Notes under the pieces: generated by a model | The model's input: only the letters and a program-made list of their open reading frames with translations | Told to the model about the DNA's origin: nothing | Database searches by the model: none | NCBI RefSeq assembly: GCF_988242995.1 | Contig: NZ_OZ547043.1 | Length of the DNA: 64,000 nucleotides | Reading direction: 5' to 3' (one strand) | Translations under genes and position numbers: made by a program | In this document: positions 1 through 57,109 of the stretch, piece after piece | How the letters are laid out: every line of letters begins with the position of its first letter | Position numbering within the stretch: position 1 is the first letter of the stretch

Positions 1-43
1 TGTGCTTTACGCCGCCATTAACCCGGCTATCAGGTACAAGTAA
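1..43 (+). CDS. gsiC: 3' end of glutathione ABC transporter permease GsiC (partial, runs off window start)
   Basis: Open frame ending ...[16 protein letters not shown] at 41-43 immediately upstream of gsiD; synteny with gsiABCD operon. Confidence 0.5.
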
Positions 44-45
44 GG

Positions 46-957
46 ATGCGACTATTTAACTGGCGACGTCAGGCGGCGTTAAACGCCATGCCACTGGTCA
101 AACCTGACCAGGTACGTACACCGTGGCATGAATTCTGGCGACGATTTCGCCGTCAGCATATGGCGATGACCGCCGCATTATTCGTTATTTTATTGATTGT
201 AGTGGCCATTTTTGCACGCTGGATCGCTCCCTATGACGCCGAAAATTATTTCGATTATGACAATCTGAATAACGGACCTTCTTTGCAGCACTGGTTTGGC
301 GTTGATTCACTGGGGCGTGACATTTTCAGCCGTGTCCTGGTTGGTGCACAAATCTCGCTGGCGGCGGGCGTGTTTGCCGTGTTTATCGGTGCGGCGATCG
401 GGACGTTGCTGGGCTTGCTGGCTGGATATTATGAAGGCTGGTGGGATCGGCTGATCATGCGCATTTGCGATGTGCTGTTTGCCTTCCCGGGTATTTTACT
501 GGCGATCGCTGTTGTTGCGGTGTTGGGAAGCGGCATTGCTAACGTGATTATTGCAGTCGCCATTTTTTCCATCCCCGCGTTTGCCCGACTGGTGCGCGGC
601 AACACGCTGGTGTTGAAACAGCAAACCTTTATTGAGTCAGCACGCAGTATTGGTGCCAGCGATATGACCATTTTATTGCGTCATATCTTGCCCGGGACCG
701 TCTCGTCTATCGTGGTGTTTTTCACCATGCGCATCGGTACCTCGATTATCTCTGCCGCCAGCCTGTCATTTCTCGGCCTCGGTGCGCAGCCGCCGACACC
801 AGAGTGGGGAGCAATGCTCAATGAGGCACGAGCGGATATGGTTATCGCGCCGCATGTCGCTATTTTTCCGGCCCTGGCTATTTTTCTGACTGTACTGGCG
901 TTCAATTTGTTGGGTGATGGTTTACGCGATGCGCTGGATCCGAAAATTAAAGGATAG
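46..957 (+). CDS. gsiD: glutathione ABC transporter permease GsiD
   Basis: 303-aa ORF; sequence matches my recollection of K-12 GsiD (YliD) full length; ABC permease hydrophobic profile. Confidence 0.93.
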
Positions 958-1134
958 TTACGTTTGAATATTGCTTGAAAGGGTAATCACCTCACAGGAA
1001 ATTATTGCCCTAAGCAAGTGTTGTAACTTTCTGCTGATTTTGTAGAATCGGGTAATTTGGTTAAAAAGCCGCAGCAAGGGACTGTTTTTGCAGCGGCACA
1101 GCGTTCAGACAGTTATTTTGTTAAATGTATTAAC

Positions 1135-3483
1135 ATGCTGAGTTTATACGAAAAGATAAAGATAAGGCTGATAATTTTATTTTTATTGGCAGCACTGTCA
1201 TTTATTGGCCTTTTTTTCATCATTAACTATCAACTGGTATCGGAACGCGCGGTAAAACGTGCCGATAGCCGCTTTGAACTTATTCAGAAAAACGTTGGCT
1301 ATTTCTTTAAAGATATTGAACGTTCGGCCCTGACATTAAAGGACTCACTGTATTTATTAAAAAATACAGAGGAGATTCAACGCGCTGTGATCCTTAAAAT
1401 GGAAATGATGCCATTTTTAGACTCGGTGGGACTGGTACTTGATGATAATAAATATTATCTCTTTTCGCGGAGGGCGAATGATAAAATCGTTGTTTATCAT
1501 CAGGAAGAAGTAAATGGACCGCTTGTCGACGAGTCAGGGCGGGTTATTTTTGCCGATTTTAATCCATCGAAACGACCATGGTCGGTGGCTTCAGATGACT
1601 CTAACAACAGCTGGAATCCGGCCTACAATTGCTTTGATCGTCCGGGTAAAAAATGTATCTCTTTTACGCTACGCATCAACGGCAAAGATCACGATTTGTT
1701 AGCGGTGGATAAAATACATGTCGATTTAAACTGGCGATATCTGAACGAGTATCTTGATCAAATCAGCGCTAATGATGAAGTTCTATTTTTGAAACAAGGC
1801 CATGAGATCATTGCCAAGAATCAACTCGCGCGTGAAAAACTGATTATTTATAATAGCGAAGGTAATTATAATATTATTGATTCTGTCGATACTGAATATA
1901 TTGAAAAAACATCAGCGGTGCCAAACAACGCATTATTCGAAATCTATTTTTATTATCCTGGCGGTAATTTATTGAACGCATCAGATAAACTTTTTTATCT
2001 GCCGTTTGCTTTCATTATTATCGTATTGCTGGTGGTTTATTTAATGACCACTCGTGTGTTCCGTCGGCAATTTTCTGAAATGACCGAGCTGGTTAATACG
2101 CTGGCGTTTTTGCCCGACTCAACGGATCAGATCGAGGCTCTGAAAATTCGCGAAGGCGATGCGAAAGAGATTATCAGCATCAAAAATTCGATCGCGGAAA
2201 TGAAAGATGCTGAAATTGAACGGGCAAATAAATTGCTCTCGCTGATCTCTTACGATCAGGAAAGCGGTTTTATTAAAAATATGGCGATTATTGAGTCCAA
2301 CAATAATCAGTATCTGGCTGTGGGGATCATCAAACTGTGTGGTCTGGAAGCTGTGGAAGCGGTGTTTGGTGTTGATGAACGCAATAAAATCGTCAGGAAA
2401 TTGTGTCAGCGAATTGCCGAGAAATATGCGCAATGCTGCGATATCGTGACATTTAATGCCGATCTCTATTTACTCCTGTGCCGGGAAAATGTACAGACGT
2501 TTACCCGTAAGATAGCGACGGTAAACGATTTTGACAGCAGTTTTGGCTACCGCAATCTGCGCATCCATAAGTCTGCTATTTGTGAACCTTTGCAGGGGGA
2601 AAACGCCTGGAGTTACGCAGAAAAGCTGAAACTGGCGATTTCCAGTATCCGCAACCATATGTTCTCAGAGTTTATTTTCTGTGATGACGCGAAACTCAAC
2701 GAAATAGAAGAGAATATCTGGATTGCGCGTAATATTCGCCATGCAATGGAAATTGGCGAACTATTCCTCGTCTATCAACCGATCGTTGATATTAACACCC
2801 GCGCCATTCTGGGCGCGGAGGCGTTGTGCCGTTGGGTGTCTGCGGAGCGGGGGATCATTTCACCGCTAAAGTTCATTACCATTGCTGAAGATATCGGGTT
2901 TATCAATGAGCTGGGTTATCAGATTATTAAAACGGCAATGGGTGAATTCAGACATTTTAGTCAGCGTGCGTCGCTGAAGGATGATTTCTTACTGCATATT
3001 AATGTTTCGCCCTGGCAGTTAAACGAACCACACTTTCATGAGCGTTTTACCACCATCATGGAAGAAAATGGCCTGAAGGCGAACAGCCTCTGTGTTGAGA
3101 TCACTGAAACCGTGATCGAGCGAATTAATGAACATTTTTATCTCAATATTGAACAACTGCGTAAACAAGGAGTACGGATATCGATTGATGACTTTGGCAC
3201 CGGTTTGTCAAACCTGAAACGTTTTTATGAAATTAATCCAGATAGCATAAAGGTGGACTCACAATTTACCGGCGATATTTTCGGTACTGCGGGAAAAATT
3301 GTGCGCATTATTTTCGATCTGGCACGCTATAACCGGATCCCGGTGATTGCGGAAGGCGTAGAGAGCGAAGACGTTGCGCGCGAATTAATCAAATTAGGAT
3401 GTGTTCAGGCTCAGGGGTATCTGTACCAGAAACCCATGCCGTTCTCCGCCTGGGATAAAAGTGGAAAATTAGTAAAAGAGTAG
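1135..3483 (+). CDS. pdeI: c-di-GMP phosphodiesterase PdeI (YliE), membrane-anchored EAL-domain protein
   Basis: ORF track 1057-3483 trimmed to ATG at 1135 ([12 protein letters not shown]...) giving 782 aa as in K-12; N-terminal TM helix, C-terminal EAL-type region (…ELGYQ…, …DDFGTG…). Confidence 0.9.
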
Positions 3484-3490
3484 TTTACGT

Positions 3491-4819
3491 ATGTCCAGAA
3501 TCAATAAGTTCGTACTTACAGTCAGTCTGCTGATTTTTATCATGATTTCAGCAGTTGCCTGCGGGATCTACACTCAAATGGTAAAGGAACGGGTGTATGG
3601 CCTGAAACAGTCCGTTATTGATACTGCTTTTGCGGTGGCAAATATTGCTGAATATCGGCGTAGCGTGGCAATTGATCTCATCAACACGCTAAACCCCACG
3701 GAGGAACAGCTGTTGGTTGGTTTGCGCACAGCTTACGCCGACTCGGTTTCACCCTCTTATTTGTACGATGTCGGTCCTTATCTGATTTCCAGTGACGAAT
3801 GTATTCAGGTAAAGGAGTTCGAGAAAAATTATTGTGCAGATATTATGCAGATTGTGAAGTATCGACATGTCAAAAATACAGGGTTTATCTCTTTTGACGG
3901 TAAAACCTTCGTCTATTACCTCTATCCGGTAACTCATAATCGTAGTCTGATATTTTTGCTTGGTCTGGAGCGTTTTTCTTTACTGTCAAAATCGCTGGCG
4001 ATGGATAGCGAGAACCTGATGTTCTCTCTGTTTAAGAACGGTAAACCGGTGACCGGTGATGAATATAATGCTAAAAACGCCATCTTCACCGTTTCGGAAG
4101 CGATGGAGCACTTCGCCTATTTGCCGACCGGATTGTACGTATTTGCGTATAAAAAAGATGTTTATTTGCGGGTCTGTACATTGATTATTTTCTTTGCCGC
4201 ATTGGTGGCAGTGATATCGGGTGTCAGTTGCCTCTATCTGGTACGCAGAGTGATTAATCGTGGTATTGTGGAGAAAGAAGCCATCATTAATAACCATTTT
4301 GAACGCGTACTGGATGGCGGGCTTTTCTTTTCAGCTGCCGATGTCAAAAAACTCTACAGTTTGTATAACTCGGCGTTCCTGGATGACCTGACCAAAGCAA
4401 TGGGCAGAAAATCCTTTGACGAAGATTTAAAAGCGCTGCCGGAAAAAGGCGGTTATTTGTGCCTGTTTGACGTCGATAAATTCAAAAACATCAACGACAC
4501 CTTCGGTCATTTGCTGGGCGATGAAGTGTTGATGAAAGTGGTGAAAATCCTTAAATCACAGATCCCCGTAGATAAAGGTAAAGTCTACCGCTTCGGCGGT
4601 GACGAATTTGCGGTGATTTATACGGGTGGAACGCTGGAAGAGTTGCTATCGATTCTAAAAGAAATTGTTCATTTCCAGGTGGGAAGCATTAATTTAAGCA
4701 CCAGTATCGGTGTAGCGCATTCAAATGAATGTACTACCGTTGAACGCTTGAAAATGCTGGCGGATGAGCGGCTGTATAAGAGTAAGAAAAACGGCAGGGC
4801 GCAGATTAGCTGGCAGTAG
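3491..4819 (+). CDS. dgcI: diguanylate cyclase DgcI (YliF), membrane GGDEF protein
   Basis: 442-aa ORF, N-terminal TM segments, C-terminal GGDEF-like region (RFGGDEF at ...[14 protein letters not shown]). Confidence 0.9.
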
Positions 4820-4888
4820 AATTAGAATAGTGTTAGTACCCCTTAATCAAGGGGTACTAATGAATGTGGTAAATCATTTGCAAACATT

Positions 4889-5218
4889 TTACTTTGCAAA
4901 AACTTCCGGCCCTTTTATTGCCAATGTATTCAAAATACGTAATGCCGGGCCGCTCGGTTTTATTTCATTACGTTCCCATTTCGAGACACTTTCTTTTGAC
5001 ATTCCCATTGTATGTGCCAGCACGGATTGTGACATGCCGTATCGGGTGCGGATGGCTTTGATCTCTTCACCCGTCATTGATTTGACTTTGGCTATACGGG
5101 CGCTGACTTCACGAGCTTTGACCATGACGGCAATGGCATCAACTTCACTATCAGACATCAGGCCCAGTGCATTCAGTTCCTTTGCATCTTCCAGCATCAT
5201 TTGTAATTTATCGCTCAT
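4889..5218 (-). CDS. XRE-family helix-turn-helix antitoxin (HigA-like)
   Basis: 109-aa ORF with HTH segment (IRTRYGMSQSVLAHTMGMSKESVSKWERNEIKPSGPALRILN); lies downstream of and overlaps the toxin ORF by 11 bp; this locus is not in K-12 gene order (yliF and rimO are adjacent b-numbers). Confidence 0.8.
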   Translation of the reverse strand: MSDKLQMMLEDAKELNALGLMSDSEVDAIAVMVKAREVSARIAKVKSMTGEEIKAIRTRYGMSQSVLAHTMGMSKESVSKWERNEIKPSGPALRILNTLAIKGPEVFAK

Positions 5219-5594
5219 TTTTCACCTCAATCAAAAAGCCAGTTTCGATCAAATCCTCTATTTGCTTATTGCTAAAGGCCAGAAATGCATTTGCCATTTT
5301 TTTGTAGGCCGCCAGTTCATCATCTTCGATTTCTTTGGTTCCTTTACTGCTTAGACCACTCTTGGACCAACCATCATAAAAAAACACATGATTTGCTGAT
5401 TTAAAAAAGATAATTGTTCTGGCTCCACCACTCTTTCCTTGTTGGAGGGGTAAACGTTTTTTGATGACACCGCTACCTAAATCAGCCTCCCATATGCCCT
5501 GCATCACTTCTTCAGCGGCAGCCATGAGAACTTTATCGTGAATACCAAGTTTTTTCGTGCTTTGGCTGAATCGTCTTGCCTTATACACACCCAT
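5208..5594 (-). CDS. RelE/ParE-superfamily toxin (HigB/Gp49-like)
   Basis: 128-aa ORF, toxin-first arrangement, motif ...KRLPLQQGKSGGARTIIFF...FFYDGWSKS... typical of Gp49/HigB-like toxins; SD AAGGATGG ~8 nt upstream of ATG. Confidence 0.75.
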   Translation of the reverse strand: MGVYKARRFSQSTKKLGIHDKVLMAAAEEVMQGIWEADLGSGVIKKRLPLQQGKSGGARTIIFFKSANHVFFYDGWSKSGLSSKGTKEIEDDELAAYKKMANAFLAFSNKQIEDLIETGFLIEVKNER

Positions 5595-5609
5595 ACATCC
5601 ATCCTTGTG

Positions 5610-5635
5610 GTAATGTTTACTATAGTAACCATTAC
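5610..5635 (-). promoter_or_regulatory. Imperfect 26-bp palindrome (12-bp arms) just upstream of the toxin start; candidate TA operator overlapping promoter
   Basis: gtaatgtttact-at-agtaaccattac read directly; position 15-40 bp upstream of toxin ATG; TA operons are typically autoregulated via such operators. Confidence 0.45.
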
Positions 5636-5819
5636 GCTTATTTCAAGTAATTGCGATCAAAACTTTAATTTGGTGTGAAAAAGTGAGAGTTGCCTCGAGT
5701 ACGATTCATTTTTCTCGATTTATGCGTCAGGGGATTTTGTGCGTAAGGGTAGGACATCGGGAAGGGCAGCAGAGGCAGATCGAAGAACAATATCCTTGTT
5801 AGATCTGCCTTAAGATTAA

Positions 5820-7145
5820 TTAAACCCGGCTACCCCACAAATCGTACTCATCGGCGTGCTCGACTTTCACACGCAGGATATCACCCGGCTTAACGTTGGT
5901 TTCACCATTGAGATAAACCGCGCCGTCGATTTCCGGTGCATCTGCCATGCTGCGACCAATCGCGCCTTCTTCGTCCACTTCGTCGATAATCACCAGAATT
6001 TCACGGCCCACTTTCTCTTGCAGGCGCTCGGCGGAAATCTGCTGCTGCAGCTGCATGAAACGGTTCCAGCGTTCTTCTTTCACTTCTTCCGGAACCTGGT
6101 CAGGCAGGGCATTGGCGTCTGCACCTTCAACCGGGCTGTATTTAAAGCAGCCAACGCGATCCAGACGCGCTTCTTTCAGGAAGTCGAGTAGCATCTGGAA
6201 ATCTTCTTCCGTCTCGCCAGGGAAGCCGACAATAAAGGTTGAGCGTAGGGTCAGTTCCGGGCAGATTTCGCGCCACTGTTTGATGCGCGCCAGTTGGCGA
6301 TCTACAGAACCCGGACGCTTCATCAGTTTGAGAATGCGCGGGCTGGCGTGCTGCAACGGAATGTCCAGATACGGCAGGATTTTGCCTTCTGCCATCAGTG
6401 GGATGACGTCGTCCACATGCGGATAAGGGTAAACGTAGTGCAGACGTGTCCAGATCCCCAGTTTCGATAACTGTTCGCACAGGCTGACCATGCTGGTTTT
6501 TACCGGCTCGCCGTTGTGGAAGCCAGTACGATGTTTAACATCAACGCCATAGGCGGAAGTATCCTGCGAGATCACCAGAATCTCTTTAACGCCAGCATCT
6601 ACCAGACGTTTCGCTTCACTTAACACTTCGCCAATCGGACGGCTCACCAGGTCGCCGCGCATAGACGGAATAATGCAGAAGGTGCAGCGGTGATTACAGC
6701 CTTCAGAAATTTTCAGATAGGCATAATGACGCGGCGTCAGTTTCACGCCTTGTTCTGGCACCAGGCTCAGGAATGGGTTGTGTTTCGGTTTTGGCACGTA
6801 GTGATGAACGTGCTCCAGAACCTGCTCATAGCTATGAGGCCCGGTGATTTCCAGCACTTTCGGGTGGACTTCGCGGATCTGATCTTCTTTTGCCCCCAGA
6901 CAACCGGTCACAATTACCTTGCCGTTTTCATTCAACGCTTCACCAATGGCTTCCAGTGATTCTTGTACCGCGCTGTCAATAAAGCCGCAGGTGTTGACGA
7001 TCACCATGTCCGCATCGTCATAGCTCGGTACCACGTCATAACCTTCAGTGCGTAGTTCGGTGAGAATACGCTCTGAATCAACAAGGTTTTTCGGACAGCC
7101 AAGGGAAACAAAGCCGATTTTCGGCTGGGGAGTTACTTTGCTCAT
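5820..7145 (-). CDS. rimO: ribosomal protein S12 methylthiotransferase RimO
   Basis: 441-aa ORF, radical-SAM CxxxCxxC ([10 protein letters not shown]) and MTTase N-terminal cysteines; matches K-12 RimO. Confidence 0.95.
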
Positions 7146-7357
7146 AGCTTAAAAAATATTCAGTTACAGGAAAGGTCAGGGCAGGGATTCTACAGAGTTC
7201 TGGATAAAATTTGTATCGCAATCTCATTCGCTGGCGGAGGCGAAGGAAATGTAAATTTTGTTAATTCGGCGTGAAGAATTGATCCTGGACAGCATTTTGC
7301 TCAAAAAATAGCCATACTATTTAATTGCAACAAGGCTGGAAAGAGGAGGATCGAAGT

Positions 7358-7741
7358 ATGTTCGTTGACAGACAGCGAATCGATCTGCTGAACCGGTTGA
7401 TCGACGCACGCGTTGACCTCGCCGCATACGTGCAACTGAGGAAGGCAAAAGGATACATGTCCGTCAGCGAAAGCAATCATCTACGAGATAACTTTTTTAA
7501 ACTGAATCGCGAACTGCACGATAAATCGCTGCGGTTGAATCTTCATCTGGATCAGGAAGAGTGGAGTGCTCTTCATCATGCTGAAGAAGCATTAGCGACA
7601 GCCGCAGTATGTTTGATGAGTGGGCACCATGATTGCCCGACTGTTATTACCGTCAACGCCGATAAGCTTGAAAATTGTCTGATGAGCTTAACGCTGAGTA
7701 TCCAGAGCCTGCAGAAGCACGCCATGCTTGAGAAGGCCTGA
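7358..7741 (+). CDS. bssR: biofilm regulator BssR
   Basis: ORF trimmed to ATG at 7358 (MFVDRQRIDLL...), 127 aa, SD GAGGAGGA upstream. Confidence 0.88.
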   Translation: MFVDRQRIDLLNRLIDARVDLAAYVQLRKAKGYMSVSESNHLRDNFFKLNRELHDKSLRLNLHLDQEEWSALHHAEEALATAAVCLMSGHHDCPTVITVNADKLENCLMSLTLSIQSLQKHAMLEKA

Positions 7742-7851
7742 AAACTAAGGGGGAGAAAGCGTCTCCCCCTTCATGTTTAAGTTTTTGTAAAAATGAATTT
7801 GTTATCTCCTCCACTGACTACGCTTTAAGCCAGAGTCAATCCGGAGGCGTT

Positions 7852-8912
7852 ATGCATCGACAATCCTTTTTCCTTGTGCCCCTTATTTGTCTTTCTTCCG
7901 CTCTCTGGGCGGCTCCTGCAACGGTAAATGTCGAAGTACTGCAGGACAAACTCGACCATCCCTGGGCGCTGGCCTTTTTACCCGACAATCACGGTATGTT
8001 AATCACTCTGCGCGGCGGCGAGTTGCGTCACTGGCAAGCAGGAAAAGGATTATCTGCGCCGCTTTCCGGAGTGCCGGAAGTTTGGGCGCACGGGCAGGGT
8101 GGCCTGCTGGATGTGGTTTTAGCGCCTGATTTTGCTCAGTCTCGCCGCATCTGGTTAAGTTATTCCGAAGTTGGCGATGATGGCAAAGCCGGAACTGCTG
8201 TGGGTTATGGCCGCTTAAGTGATGATCTCTCAAAGGTGACCGACTTCCGCACCGTCTTTCGCCAGATGCCAAAACTGTCTACCGGCAACCATTTTGGCGG
8301 GCGGCTGGTATTCGACGGTAAAGGTTATCTTTTTATTGCTCTGGGCGAAAACAATCAGCGCCCGACGGCGCAGGATCTGAATAAATTACAGGGCAAACTG
8401 GTGCGTCTGACCGACCAGGGCGAAATCCCGGATGATAATCCTTTTATAAAGGAATCCGGTGCGCGCGCCGAGATCTGGTCTTATGGCATTCGTAATCCGC
8501 AAGGAATGGCGATGAAATTAATATCCCGCAAAAAGGCAAAAACTACGGCTGGCCGCTGGCAACCTGGGGAATCAACTATTCAGGCTTTAAGATACCGGAA
8601 GCGAAAGGGGAGATCGTCGCCGGGACCGAGCAACCTGTTTTTTACTGGAAAGATTCGCCCGCCGTGAGCGGCATGGCCTTCTATAACAGCGATAAATTCC
8701 CCCAGTGGCAGCAAAAATTATTTATTGGCGCGCTGAAAGATAAAGATGTCATTGTGATGAGCGTCAACGGCGACAAAGTGACAGAAGATGGCCGTATTTT
8801 AACGGACAGAGGGCAGCGAATTCGTGATGTTCGCACTGGACCCGACGGTTATTTATACGTTCTCACCGACGAGTCCAGTGGGGAATTACTTAAAGTTAGC
8901 CCACGCAATTAG
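7852..8912 (+). pseudogene. yliI: yliI (soluble aldose sugar dehydrogenase) disrupted by frameshift
   Basis: Two overlapping ORFs (7852-8667 and 8664-8912) carry the N- and C-terminal parts of one protein; total span 1061 bp is not a multiple of 3; frame switches just after ...NPQGMAM (~8518). Confidence 0.7.
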
Positions 8913-9535
8913 CTAACGGGAATCATCACCACTTTGCGCACTGCTGGGCGTTCAGTGAGTTGCTGATACCAGCGTTGCAGATTTGGACGCGGTGTCCAGG
9001 TCAGGCCAACGTTAAACAAATTGTAGATGAACGGAGCGATAGCGATATCGCCCACACCAAACTCGTCGCCAGAGAACCATTTTACTTTTGCCAGTTCCGC
9101 ATCGAGCAGGGCAAACAGGGCGTCGCACTCTTTACAACTGGCATCAATGGCGGCCTGATCGCGCTCTTCCGGTGGTGTTCTGACTAATCCCATCAGGATC
9201 CCGCGATGAGCATTACTGAGCGTCTGGTTTGCCCAGTCCATCCATTTTTCTGCTTCCGCACGACGTGCCGGTGAGTCGATCCACAGGCGTTTTTGCCCGT
9301 ACTGTGCCGCCAGATAGCGGACAATGGCGTTTGATTCCCAAAGAATGAGATCACTTTCGTCGTCACGCAACAACGGCACCAGCCCGTTAGGGTTCATCGC
9401 CAGAAAATCAGCATCGTGATTTATCCCAAACTCACGGCCCGCGAGAATTTGCTCATAAGGTAGTTCCAGTTCTTCGAGCGTCAGCAATACTTTTTTTACG
9501 TTGGTTGAATTATTCCGACCCCACAGCGTAATCAT
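8909..9535 (-). CDS. gstB: glutathione S-transferase GstB
   Basis: ORF trimmed to [12 protein letters not shown]..., 208 aa, GST fold motifs. Confidence 0.9.
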
Positions 9536-17013: not shown

Positions 17014-17032
17014 TAGATAAATTATAGGCAAC

Positions 17033-17111
17033 AAAAAACCCACCAACCTTGAACCGAAATGGCGGGGTTGATGGGCTCCACAAAATGGGGACATCAAAGA
17101 AAAGCAGTGGC
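17033..17111 (-). ncRNA. rybB: sigma-E-dependent small RNA RybB
   Basis: Reverse complement reads GCCACTGCTTTTCTTTGATGTCCCCATTTTGTGGAGCCCATCAACCCCGCCATTTCGGTTCAAGGTTGGTGGGTTTTTT, matching the RybB sequence as I recall it, with terminal hairpin and U-tract; located between rcdA and ybjL as in K-12. Confidence 0.88.
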
Positions 17112-57021: not shown

Positions 57022-57109
57022 GTTCACTGCCGTACAGGCAGCTTAGAAAGCCAACCGAAAGAAAAACTCGATTTTTATACCGTTCACTGCCGTACAGGCA
57101 GATAAAATG
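57022..57109 (+). CRISPR. orphan type I-F CRISPR remnant: two 28-bp repeats flanking one 32-bp spacer
   Basis: Repeat 1 GTTCACTGCCGTACAGGCAGCTTAGAAA (57022-57049) matches the E. coli/Yersinia I-F repeat; spacer gccaaccgaaagaaaaactcgatttttatacc (57050-57081); repeat 2 GTTCACTGCCGTACAGGCAGataaaatg (57082-57109) degenerate at 3' end; AT-rich leader-like sequence upstream; no cas genes in window. Confidence 0.82.

Follow-up and report, generated by a model that had tools for sequence, protein, structure and literature searches.

The preliminary description of this DNA had proposed that a toxin-antitoxin (TA) cassette lying directly downstream of pdeI and dgcI might alter transcription termination of, or readthrough from, this c-di-GMP signalling pair. 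The locus raises the question of whether the two genes differ from their K-12 counterparts and whether the DNA behind them affects how their transcripts end. We analysed the locus within a window of 64,000 nucleotides (contig NZ_OZ547043.1). Our overall reading, which we hold with considerable confidence, is that a conserved core gene pair borders an old spacer that exists in two alleles, and that the allele found here carries a TA operon together with a replacement hairpin.

The pdeI-dgcI gene pair

1021-1048, plus strand: promoter-like site TTGTAA-16-TAGAAT, 87 nt before the start of pdeI (9 of 12 matches; weak evidence)
1135-3483, plus strand: pdeI (yliE), encoding a membrane sensor protein of 782 aa with CHASE9 and EAL domains; ortholog of K-12 b0833
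3491-4819, plus strand: dgcI (yliF), encoding a membrane sensor protein of 442 aa with GAPES2 and GGDEF domains; ortholog of K-12 b0834

Both open reading frames are intact and occupy exactly 1135-3483 and 3491-4819, which confirms that the two genes are adjacent, as first described. They form an ordinary conserved E. coli pair of true orthologs of K-12 b0833 and b0834 and are not a chance pattern. Genes, synteny (gsiD-pdeI-dgcI-...-rimO-bssR-yliI), domain architecture and the intact EAL, DDFGTG and GGDEF motifs are the same as in K-12, with 99% identity at the protein level and, in the K-12 ortholog test, 98.1-98.3% identity at the DNA level. The differences from K-12 comprise six substitutions in PdeI and five in DgcI, a dgcI stop codon that reads TAG instead of TAA, and a dgcI-rimO spacer of 1000 bp containing a TA operon as opposed to one of 46 bp. 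Since the gap between pdeI and dgcI measures 7 nt and a consensus terminator scan found no terminator-like site in it, the two genes are probably co-transcribed. The promoter-like site upstream of pdeI (1021-1048) has an identical copy in K-12; the total number of promoter-like sites in the region does not exceed that in shuffled sequence.

In PdeI, Pfam assigns the CHASE9 domain to residues 35-150 and the EAL domain (PF00563) to residues 532-767, the latter with 234.3 bits against a gathering cut-off of 31.3. The catalytic motifs EALCR and DDFGTG are found at residues 562 and 685, respectively, and all EAL signature motifs that were checked are intact. For the PdeI ortholog of CFT073, the full set of catalytic residues has been tabulated (PMC3484386). 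In DgcI, the GAPES2 domain covers residues 26-229 (Pfam) and the GGDEF domain (PF00990) residues 295-437, with a score of 89.3 bits (cut-off 23.8) and an intact GGDEF active site at residues 369-373. The RxxD inhibitory site (I-site) expected five residues before this motif is absent from the 11-residue stretch that was inspected. An RxxD I-site is optional, however, and not a defining trait of GGDEF diguanylate cyclases. Moreover, the CFT073 table gives the I-site of DgcI as 'GE', in agreement with its absence here (PMC3484386). Finally, hydrophobic segments lie on either side of the sensor domain in both PdeI (residues 12-30 and 286-304) and DgcI (residues 8-26 and 224-242), an arrangement that fits membrane-bound proteins with a periplasmic sensor.

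What the two proteins do to c-di-GMP is less straightforward than the term "known antagonistic pair", used in the preliminary description, suggests. That they are neighbours is known, and the pair is already catalogued in the E. coli c-di-GMP network, with nothing unusual indicated; for the antagonism, we found no supporting paper. The term is an overstatement, because overexpression of PdeI raised c-di-GMP about 11-fold (PMC11651652) and the DgcI protein of K-12 is undetectable (PMC5635695). Regarding a net phosphodiesterase role of PdeI, the literature is conflicting, the result of PMC11651652 standing against the intact EAL motifs. It could therefore be that the two proteins are not antagonistic at all and that both raise c-di-GMP or act locally via protein contacts, with PdeI being a trigger or sensor instead of a net phosphodiesterase. 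The rise in c-di-GMP was abolished by G412S, a substitution in the divergent GGDEF region of PdeI (PMC11651652), and G412 is retained in this strain. The NCBIfam GepA model aligns to PdeI residues 378-774, which corresponds to the GGDEF-EAL span. Moreover, the DgcI ortholog of Shigella flexneri makes c-di-GMP and needs its GG residues to do so, and a GG-to-AA mutant of it still has an effect on invasion (PMC11327459). We nevertheless consider this possibility rather unlikely: besides the intact EAL signature, the reported rise comes from overexpression experiments, and Pfam, even with E relaxed to 5, finds no GGDEF domain in PdeI, despite the divergent GGDEF region described in the literature, which makes c-di-GMP synthesis by PdeI itself doubtful.

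Two alleles of the dgcI-rimO spacer

4820-5814, no strand assigned: allele-specific segment of 995 nt, a TA operon bracketed by two hairpins, which stands for the 41-nt hairpin spacer of K-12
4832-4861, no strand assigned: perfect hairpin of 12-13 bp without a U-tract, located where dgcI and the antitoxin gene converge with their 3' ends
4889-5218, minus strand: gene for an HTH antitoxin of 109 aa, similar to HigA2 and to the C-terminal part of MqsA (Pfam HTH_3, 1.9e-9)
5208-5594, minus strand: gene for a HigB2-like toxin of the RelE superfamily, 128 aa (PF06296, 113.8 bits, Pfam)
5610-5635, no strand assigned: near-perfect palindrome of 26 bp (92% complementary, arms abutting) just upstream of the toxin start; candidate antitoxin operator
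5619-5646, minus strand: promoter-like site TTGAAA-16-TATAGT, with 10 of 12 matches the best in the region; candidate promoter of the TA operon
5773-5810, no strand assigned: second hairpin, 10 nt past the rimO stop (minus strand), which takes the rimO side of the single shared hairpin of K-12
5820-7145, minus strand: rimO, which in K-12 is the next gene after dgcI and convergent with it; in this strain the cassette lies in between

The dgcI-rimO spacer exists as two alleles in E. coli, of which about 79% of genomes have the K-12 type and about 21% the cassette. At this locus the cassette is found in 1138 of 5426 complete E. coli genomes, O157:H7 included, whereas the short K-12-type junction is intact in 4283. 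In about 1140 genomes the K-12 junction is split into two places, a number that agrees with that of the cassette carriers. Calling the insertion strain-specific was therefore wrong, because the cassette is a common and old allele. In strain BS-01 the cassette has decayed, and most of the antitoxin gene is gone. In the alignment with K-12, the boundaries of the exchanged segment are the third base of the dgcI stop codon and a point 5 nt past the rimO stop.

As noted earlier, the cassette directly follows dgcI: it consists of two genes, separated from dgcI by a spacer of 69 bp. The toxin gene lies upstream of the antitoxin gene in the operon, the two overlap by 11 nt and both converge on dgcI. 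The cassette resembles the type II TA system HigB2/HigA2 of Vibrio cholerae (PDB 5ja8, 5ja9, 5jaa), and its toxin activity is putative. In both systems the toxin gene comes first and is followed by the HTH antitoxin gene. Moreover, HigB2 and HigA2 are, independently, the best solved relatives of the two cassette proteins. For the antitoxin this is the HigA-2 chain 5jaa_A (E 5.7e-4), and its NCBIfam matches to MqsA-family and NadS models both fall under the curated cut-offs. As a single sequence, the toxin has no match in PDB or NCBIfam, and HigB2 is reached only by profile and fold search: its alignment profile hits HigB-2 of V. cholerae (E 1.5e-4), and for its predicted structure (pLDDT 87.6) HigB2 is the top-scoring PDB entry (E 3e-4, probability 1.0). 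The relationship is nonetheless very distant: the structural alignment shows about 14% identity, the TM-scores are 0.47/0.57, and only residues 41-86 of the cassette toxin take part in the sequence match. This toxin is also a member of PF06296, and its predicted model shows two additional helices at the C-terminus.

Relatives of the toxin are found in other Enterobacterales and on plasmids, and the identical protein occurs on at least 1000 contigs. In reference genomes the two genes are already labelled as a toxin-antitoxin pair; our literature search, which was not aimed at the cassette, returned no experimental study of the pair in E. coli. The palindrome at 5610-5635 overlaps the -10 hexamer of the promoter-like site of the TA operon and is a candidate operator for the antitoxin.

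Age and origin of the cassette allele

The cassette is collinear with that of O157:H7 and 98.7% identical to it (1.3% divergence), while pdeI, dgcI and rimO are 98.0-99.4% identical between the two genomes (0.6-2.0% divergence). Since the cassette has diverged to a similar extent as its flanking genes, this indicates that it is an old resident of the locus. The short hairpin spacer is kept in E. whittamii and in one cryptic-clade Escherichia, which indicates that the cassette allele is derived and the short spacer ancestral. The basis for this polarity is few outgroups, as full-length orthologs from outside typical E. coli numbered three among the matches listed by a contig scan with DgcI. E. 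albertii NBRC 107761 has a different insert between the same two stop codons. As in the cassette allele, the whole spacer has been replaced by cargo transcribed in the direction of rimO; unlike the cassette, this cargo comprises one ORF of about 237 aa with HEAT repeats and no TA pair.

The opposite order of events would be that E. coli originally had the cassette allele and that loss of the TA genes by deletion produced the K-12-type spacer. Between distant lineages the divergence of the cassette is close to that of the core flanks, as expected for an old element, and the decayed copy in BS-01 demonstrates that decay does happen. However, the 41-nt hairpin spacer of K-12 has no sequence in common with the cassette and is therefore not a deletion remnant. 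Moreover, E. whittamii and the cryptic-clade strain carry the same hairpin spacer as K-12, and the short allele is in the majority (4283/5426). We therefore judge an origin of the short spacer by deletion to be improbable. A recent insertion of a mobile element was rejected: a search of the cassette ends turned up neither target-site duplications nor terminal inverted repeats, nothing points to a transposon or integrase, and the flanking SNP patterns are mosaic. We favour the view that the cassette is an old allele that may have spread by recombination in its flanks, because of this mosaic pattern.

Transcription termination at the junction

The hairpin at 4832-4861 lies 13 nt past the dgcI stop codon and has a predicted stability of -19.3 kcal/mol on the plus strand and -17.7 kcal/mol on the minus strand (z-scores -5.8 and -5.2). 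Its K-12 counterpart lies 11 nt past the stop and is predicted at -20.2 kcal/mol. In O157:H7 the stem is retained despite a change at the loop-closing pair. The hairpin is likely to be a 3'-end-forming or stabilising structure for the dgcI and antitoxin transcripts. In neither allele is dgcI followed by a canonical intrinsic terminator: there is a hairpin, but its tail contains only 3-5 U in 12 nt and thus no U-tract, and the consensus terminator scan gave no hit next to dgcI in the spacer of either allele. An Rfam search of the whole window at gathering thresholds returned nothing in positions 1-9000. Both alleles resemble hairpins shared by convergent genes, which act as bidirectional terminators or as 3'-end protectors of Rho-terminated transcripts, in that a stable hairpin lies midway between the converging stop codons. 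They differ from the canonical definition in that a U-tract is absent on either side in either allele.

For K-12, a Rho-dependent termination region has been reported inside pdeI at genome coordinate 873644, with a score of 2.68 and a significance of 5e-6 (PMC7815308). Transfer of coordinates places its equivalent as follows.

Approximately 1800, plus strand: equivalent of the K-12 Rho region, with K-12 coordinate 872979 corresponding to window position 1135 (PMC7815308)

The supplementary files of the same study, which covers three growth conditions, list no 3' end for dgcI or rimO (PMC7815308), and neither gene is mentioned in the TERMITe supplementary tables. Because of the Rho region in pdeI, the lack of a listed dgcI 3' end and the undetectable DgcI protein, few transcripts may reach the junction under laboratory conditions.

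The sequence gives no sign of altered dgcI termination, as the hairpins of the two alleles are alike in position and predicted strength and both are without a U-tract. In the K-12-type allele, a single hairpin in the 46-bp spacer would serve both dgcI and rimO. In the cassette allele, this spacer is exchanged for a HigB2/HigA2-like type II TA operon with its own putative promoter and palindromic operator, and two hairpins, one toward dgcI and one toward rimO, bracket the operon. The dgcI-side hairpin is close to that of K-12 in place and predicted stability and may thus preserve formation of the dgcI 3' end. On this reading, PdeI and DgcI are proteins of the inner membrane that combine a periplasmic sensor domain with the catalytic motifs of c-di-GMP turnover. 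Since the replacement hairpin sits at nearly the same position and has a similar stability, the effect of the cassette on pdeI-dgcI is most likely none or small, with 3'-end formation preserved by a hairpin of predicted equivalence.

We see only a slim chance that the cassette does change termination or readthrough, be it through readthrough antisense to the antitoxin gene or through convergent TA transcription that collides with, or is antisense to, the dgcI 3' end. The spacer sequence is wholly unlike that of K-12, termination may leak because neither hairpin is followed by a U-tract, and opposing transcription would now come from a TA operon that has a good promoter-like site. As this convergent partner is an autoregulated TA operon instead of the housekeeping gene found in K-12, the amount of opposing transcription could change. 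However, the replacement hairpin at a matching position makes an effect unlikely, the convergent arrangement itself is common to both alleles, and the K-12 observations on Rho, the dgcI 3' end and DgcI levels also argue against it. Moreover, that the allele is common and old speaks against a disruptive effect, though a modulatory one is possible.

It is very improbable that the dgcI-rimO junction is a cargo slot in Escherichia (hairpin only, HigBA2-like TA or HEAT-repeat gene) in which TA derepression is coupled to c-di-GMP signalling; if true, a stress-derepressed TA promoter would, in about 21% of E. coli, drive convergent transcription against the dgcI 3' end and tie TA activation to signalling through DgcI/PdeI as well as to the PdeI-high subpopulation, which is prone to persistence. 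Term-seq studies exist for both K-12 (PMC7815308) and O157:H7 Sakai (PMC7547250), and the termination hypothesis is testable from these datasets, since the two strains differ naturally at the junction.

The pdeI-dgcI pair and its neighbours

The window derives from an E. coli chromosome: its first 9 kb are matched in 5425 of 5426 complete E. coli genomes, with strain NY1601 as the top match (100% identity). The gene layout was taken from the RefSeq annotation of this match together with the ORF list.

Genes in and around the pair (window coordinates, strand, gene)
46-957, +, gsiD
1135-3483, +, pdeI
3491-4819, +, dgcI
4889-5218, -, HTH protein gene
5208-5594, -, RelE/ParE-family toxin gene
5820-7145, -, rimO
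beyond rimO, bssR, then yliI

The span 1135-4819, which the preliminary description had assigned to the pair, coincides exactly with the stretch from the start of pdeI to the stop of dgcI. Both proteins are 99% identical to their K-12 counterparts (b0833 and b0834), and synteny is the same. In PdeI, a periplasmic CHASE9 domain (35-150) is followed by an EAL domain (532-767, 234 bits) with intact EALCR and DDFGTG motifs. DgcI combines a periplasmic GAPES2 domain (26-229) with a GGDEF domain (295-437, 89 bits), whose GGDEF motif spans residues 369-373; an RxxD I-site is absent from DgcI. The sensor domains of both proteins are each flanked by two strongly hydrophobic segments. Since the two genes are separated by only 7 nt, and no hairpin-terminator-like site was found in this gap, pdeI and dgcI are likely co-transcribed.

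That the two genes are neighbours is well established, and homologous pairs of yliE and yliF also accompany plasmid-borne bcs clusters (bioRxiv 10.1101/2025.05.09.653004). However, we found no demonstration in the literature of the antagonism between PdeI and DgcI that had been taken as known. Overexpression of PdeI raised c-di-GMP ~11-fold, and a G412S exchange in its divergent GGDEF region abolished this rise (PMC11651652); PdeI of the window retains G412. In K-12, dgcI is barely expressed and its protein is not detectable (PMC5635695). Shigella DgcI, when expressed, is an active cyclase (PMC11327459), and deletion of yliF changed adherence in CFT073 (PMC3484386). A Rho-dependent termination region lies within K-12 pdeI (genome coordinate 873644, Rho score 2.68), and the supplementary files of the same study list no 3' end for either dgcI or rimO (PMC7815308). 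The region, which corresponds to window position ~1800, may explain why dgcI is expressed at such a low level, and is a hint that transcription of the pdeI-dgcI operon ends prematurely under some conditions. Finally, the sigma-54 holoenzyme is reported to bind in vitro to a site within yliE, upstream of yliF (PMC8743547).

A replaced spacer between dgcI and rimO

The stop codons of dgcI and rimO are 46 bp apart in K-12 versus 1000 bp in the window. The alignment with K-12 loses homology at the last base of the dgcI stop codon (TAA in K-12, TAG in the window) and regains it 5 nt past the rimO stop. The window thus carries 995 nt (4820-5814) in place of 41 nt in K-12, and neither a target-site duplication nor terminal inverted repeats were found at the ends of this segment. 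Carriers of the 1-kb spacer number 1138 among the 5426 complete genomes and include many O157:H7 strains; they nearly always have a single, chromosomal copy. The K-12-type junction is intact in 4283 genomes and split into two places in ~1140, so the locus is essentially biallelic and the cassette is not strain-specific. The preliminary description is confirmed in what it observed and supported in part in how it interpreted this. Both the pair and the cassette are already annotated and ordinary.

The K-12 spacer contains a hairpin of 12-13 bp that starts 11 nt past the dgcI stop, with predicted energies of -20.2 kcal/mol (dgcI strand) and -23.0 kcal/mol (rimO strand). In the window, a perfect hairpin (4832-4861) starts 13 nt past the dgcI stop (predicted -19.3 kcal/mol on the + strand, -17.7 on the - strand), and its stem is kept in the O157:H7 version. 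A second hairpin (5773-5810) follows rimO; the cassette thus supplies a substitute for the shared K-12 hairpin on the dgcI side and on the rimO side. In neither allele is the hairpin followed by a U-tract, and a consensus scan called no terminator at the dgcI-side junction of the window or K-12. The convergent arrangement is also retained, the opposing unit being the TA operon in the window versus rimO in K-12. Judging from the predicted structures, nothing in the sequence points to a changed 3' end of pdeI-dgcI, and the proposed effect of the cassette on termination finds no support there.

The toxin-antitoxin cassette and its history

Within the cassette, the toxin gene precedes the antitoxin gene with an 11-nt overlap. 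The best promoter-like site in the region, TTGAAA-16-TATAGT, shares its -10 hexamer with a 26-bp palindrome (5610-5635). The toxin is recognised by Pfam PF06296 (114 bits). Among TA-related proteins of solved structure, its partner, an HTH_3 protein, is best matched by V. cholerae HigA-2 (E 5.7e-4). A toxin profile built from 28 homologs matches HigB-2 (E 1.5e-4), and HigB2 is also the best match of the confidently predicted toxin structure (pLDDT 87.6; Foldseek E 3e-4, TM-scores 0.47/0.57). By homology, the toxin is most likely a ribosome-dependent mRNA endonuclease that would be restrained by the antitoxin, and the latter would autorepress the operon. Relatives of the toxin with 50-73% identity are found in Kluyvera, Xenorhabdus, Photorhabdus, Providencia and Pantoea, and more distant copies are carried by plasmids of many genera.

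The cassettes of the window and O157:H7 are collinear and 98.7% identical, and the flanking genes are 98.0% (pdeI), 98.1% (dgcI) and 99.4% (rimO) identical. The SNPs of the flanks form mosaic patterns, and the final 120 bp of dgcI include a short run of shared sites. These comparisons fit an old allele that homologous recombination has maintained and moved. E. coli BS-01 (NZ_CP172816.1; 4003-4871 of locus L004) has a decayed copy of the cassette that has lost most of the antitoxin gene and keeps a diverged toxin ORF (85% identity over 108 aa). In the annotation of BS-01, pdeI is a pseudogene interrupted by an internal stop.

A scan of species-representative genomes recovered at least three full-length DgcI orthologs outside typical E. 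coli. In E. whittamii and a cryptic-clade Escherichia (PdeI 92% identical), the spacer is short and forms the hairpin of K-12, GCAGGCCGG...CCCGGCCTG. In E. albertii NBRC 107761 (locus L006, 6330-7089), in contrast, the stop codons are ~760 bp apart, and a HEAT-repeat ORF of ~237 aa on the rimO strand (Pfam HEAT_2, 1.4e-14) takes the place of hairpin or TA cassette. Thus, judging from the outgroups among the matches listed, the short hairpin spacer is most likely ancestral, and different cargo has entered the junction more than once, in a sister species too.

Other features of the window

In yliI (7852-8912; aldose sugar dehydrogenase), the window lacks 55 bp at 8506/8507 that are present in NY1601, elsewhere 100% identical, and in the best eight matching genomes listed. 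The deletion, with the 10-nt direct repeat TGGCGATGAA on either side, causes a frameshift that leaves a shortened 271-aa ORF; this makes yliI a pseudogene private to the strain, unless the assembly is in error. Downstream of a 763-aa ORF and beside a tRNA gene, the window has an orphan type I-F CRISPR remnant (57022-57103), in which a 32-nt spacer separates a complete 28-nt repeat (Rfam CRISPR-DR4) from a truncated second one; the ORF list shows no cas genes in the vicinity. Finally, the RybB sRNA is found at 17030-17108 on the - strand as a full-length Rfam match (104 bits).
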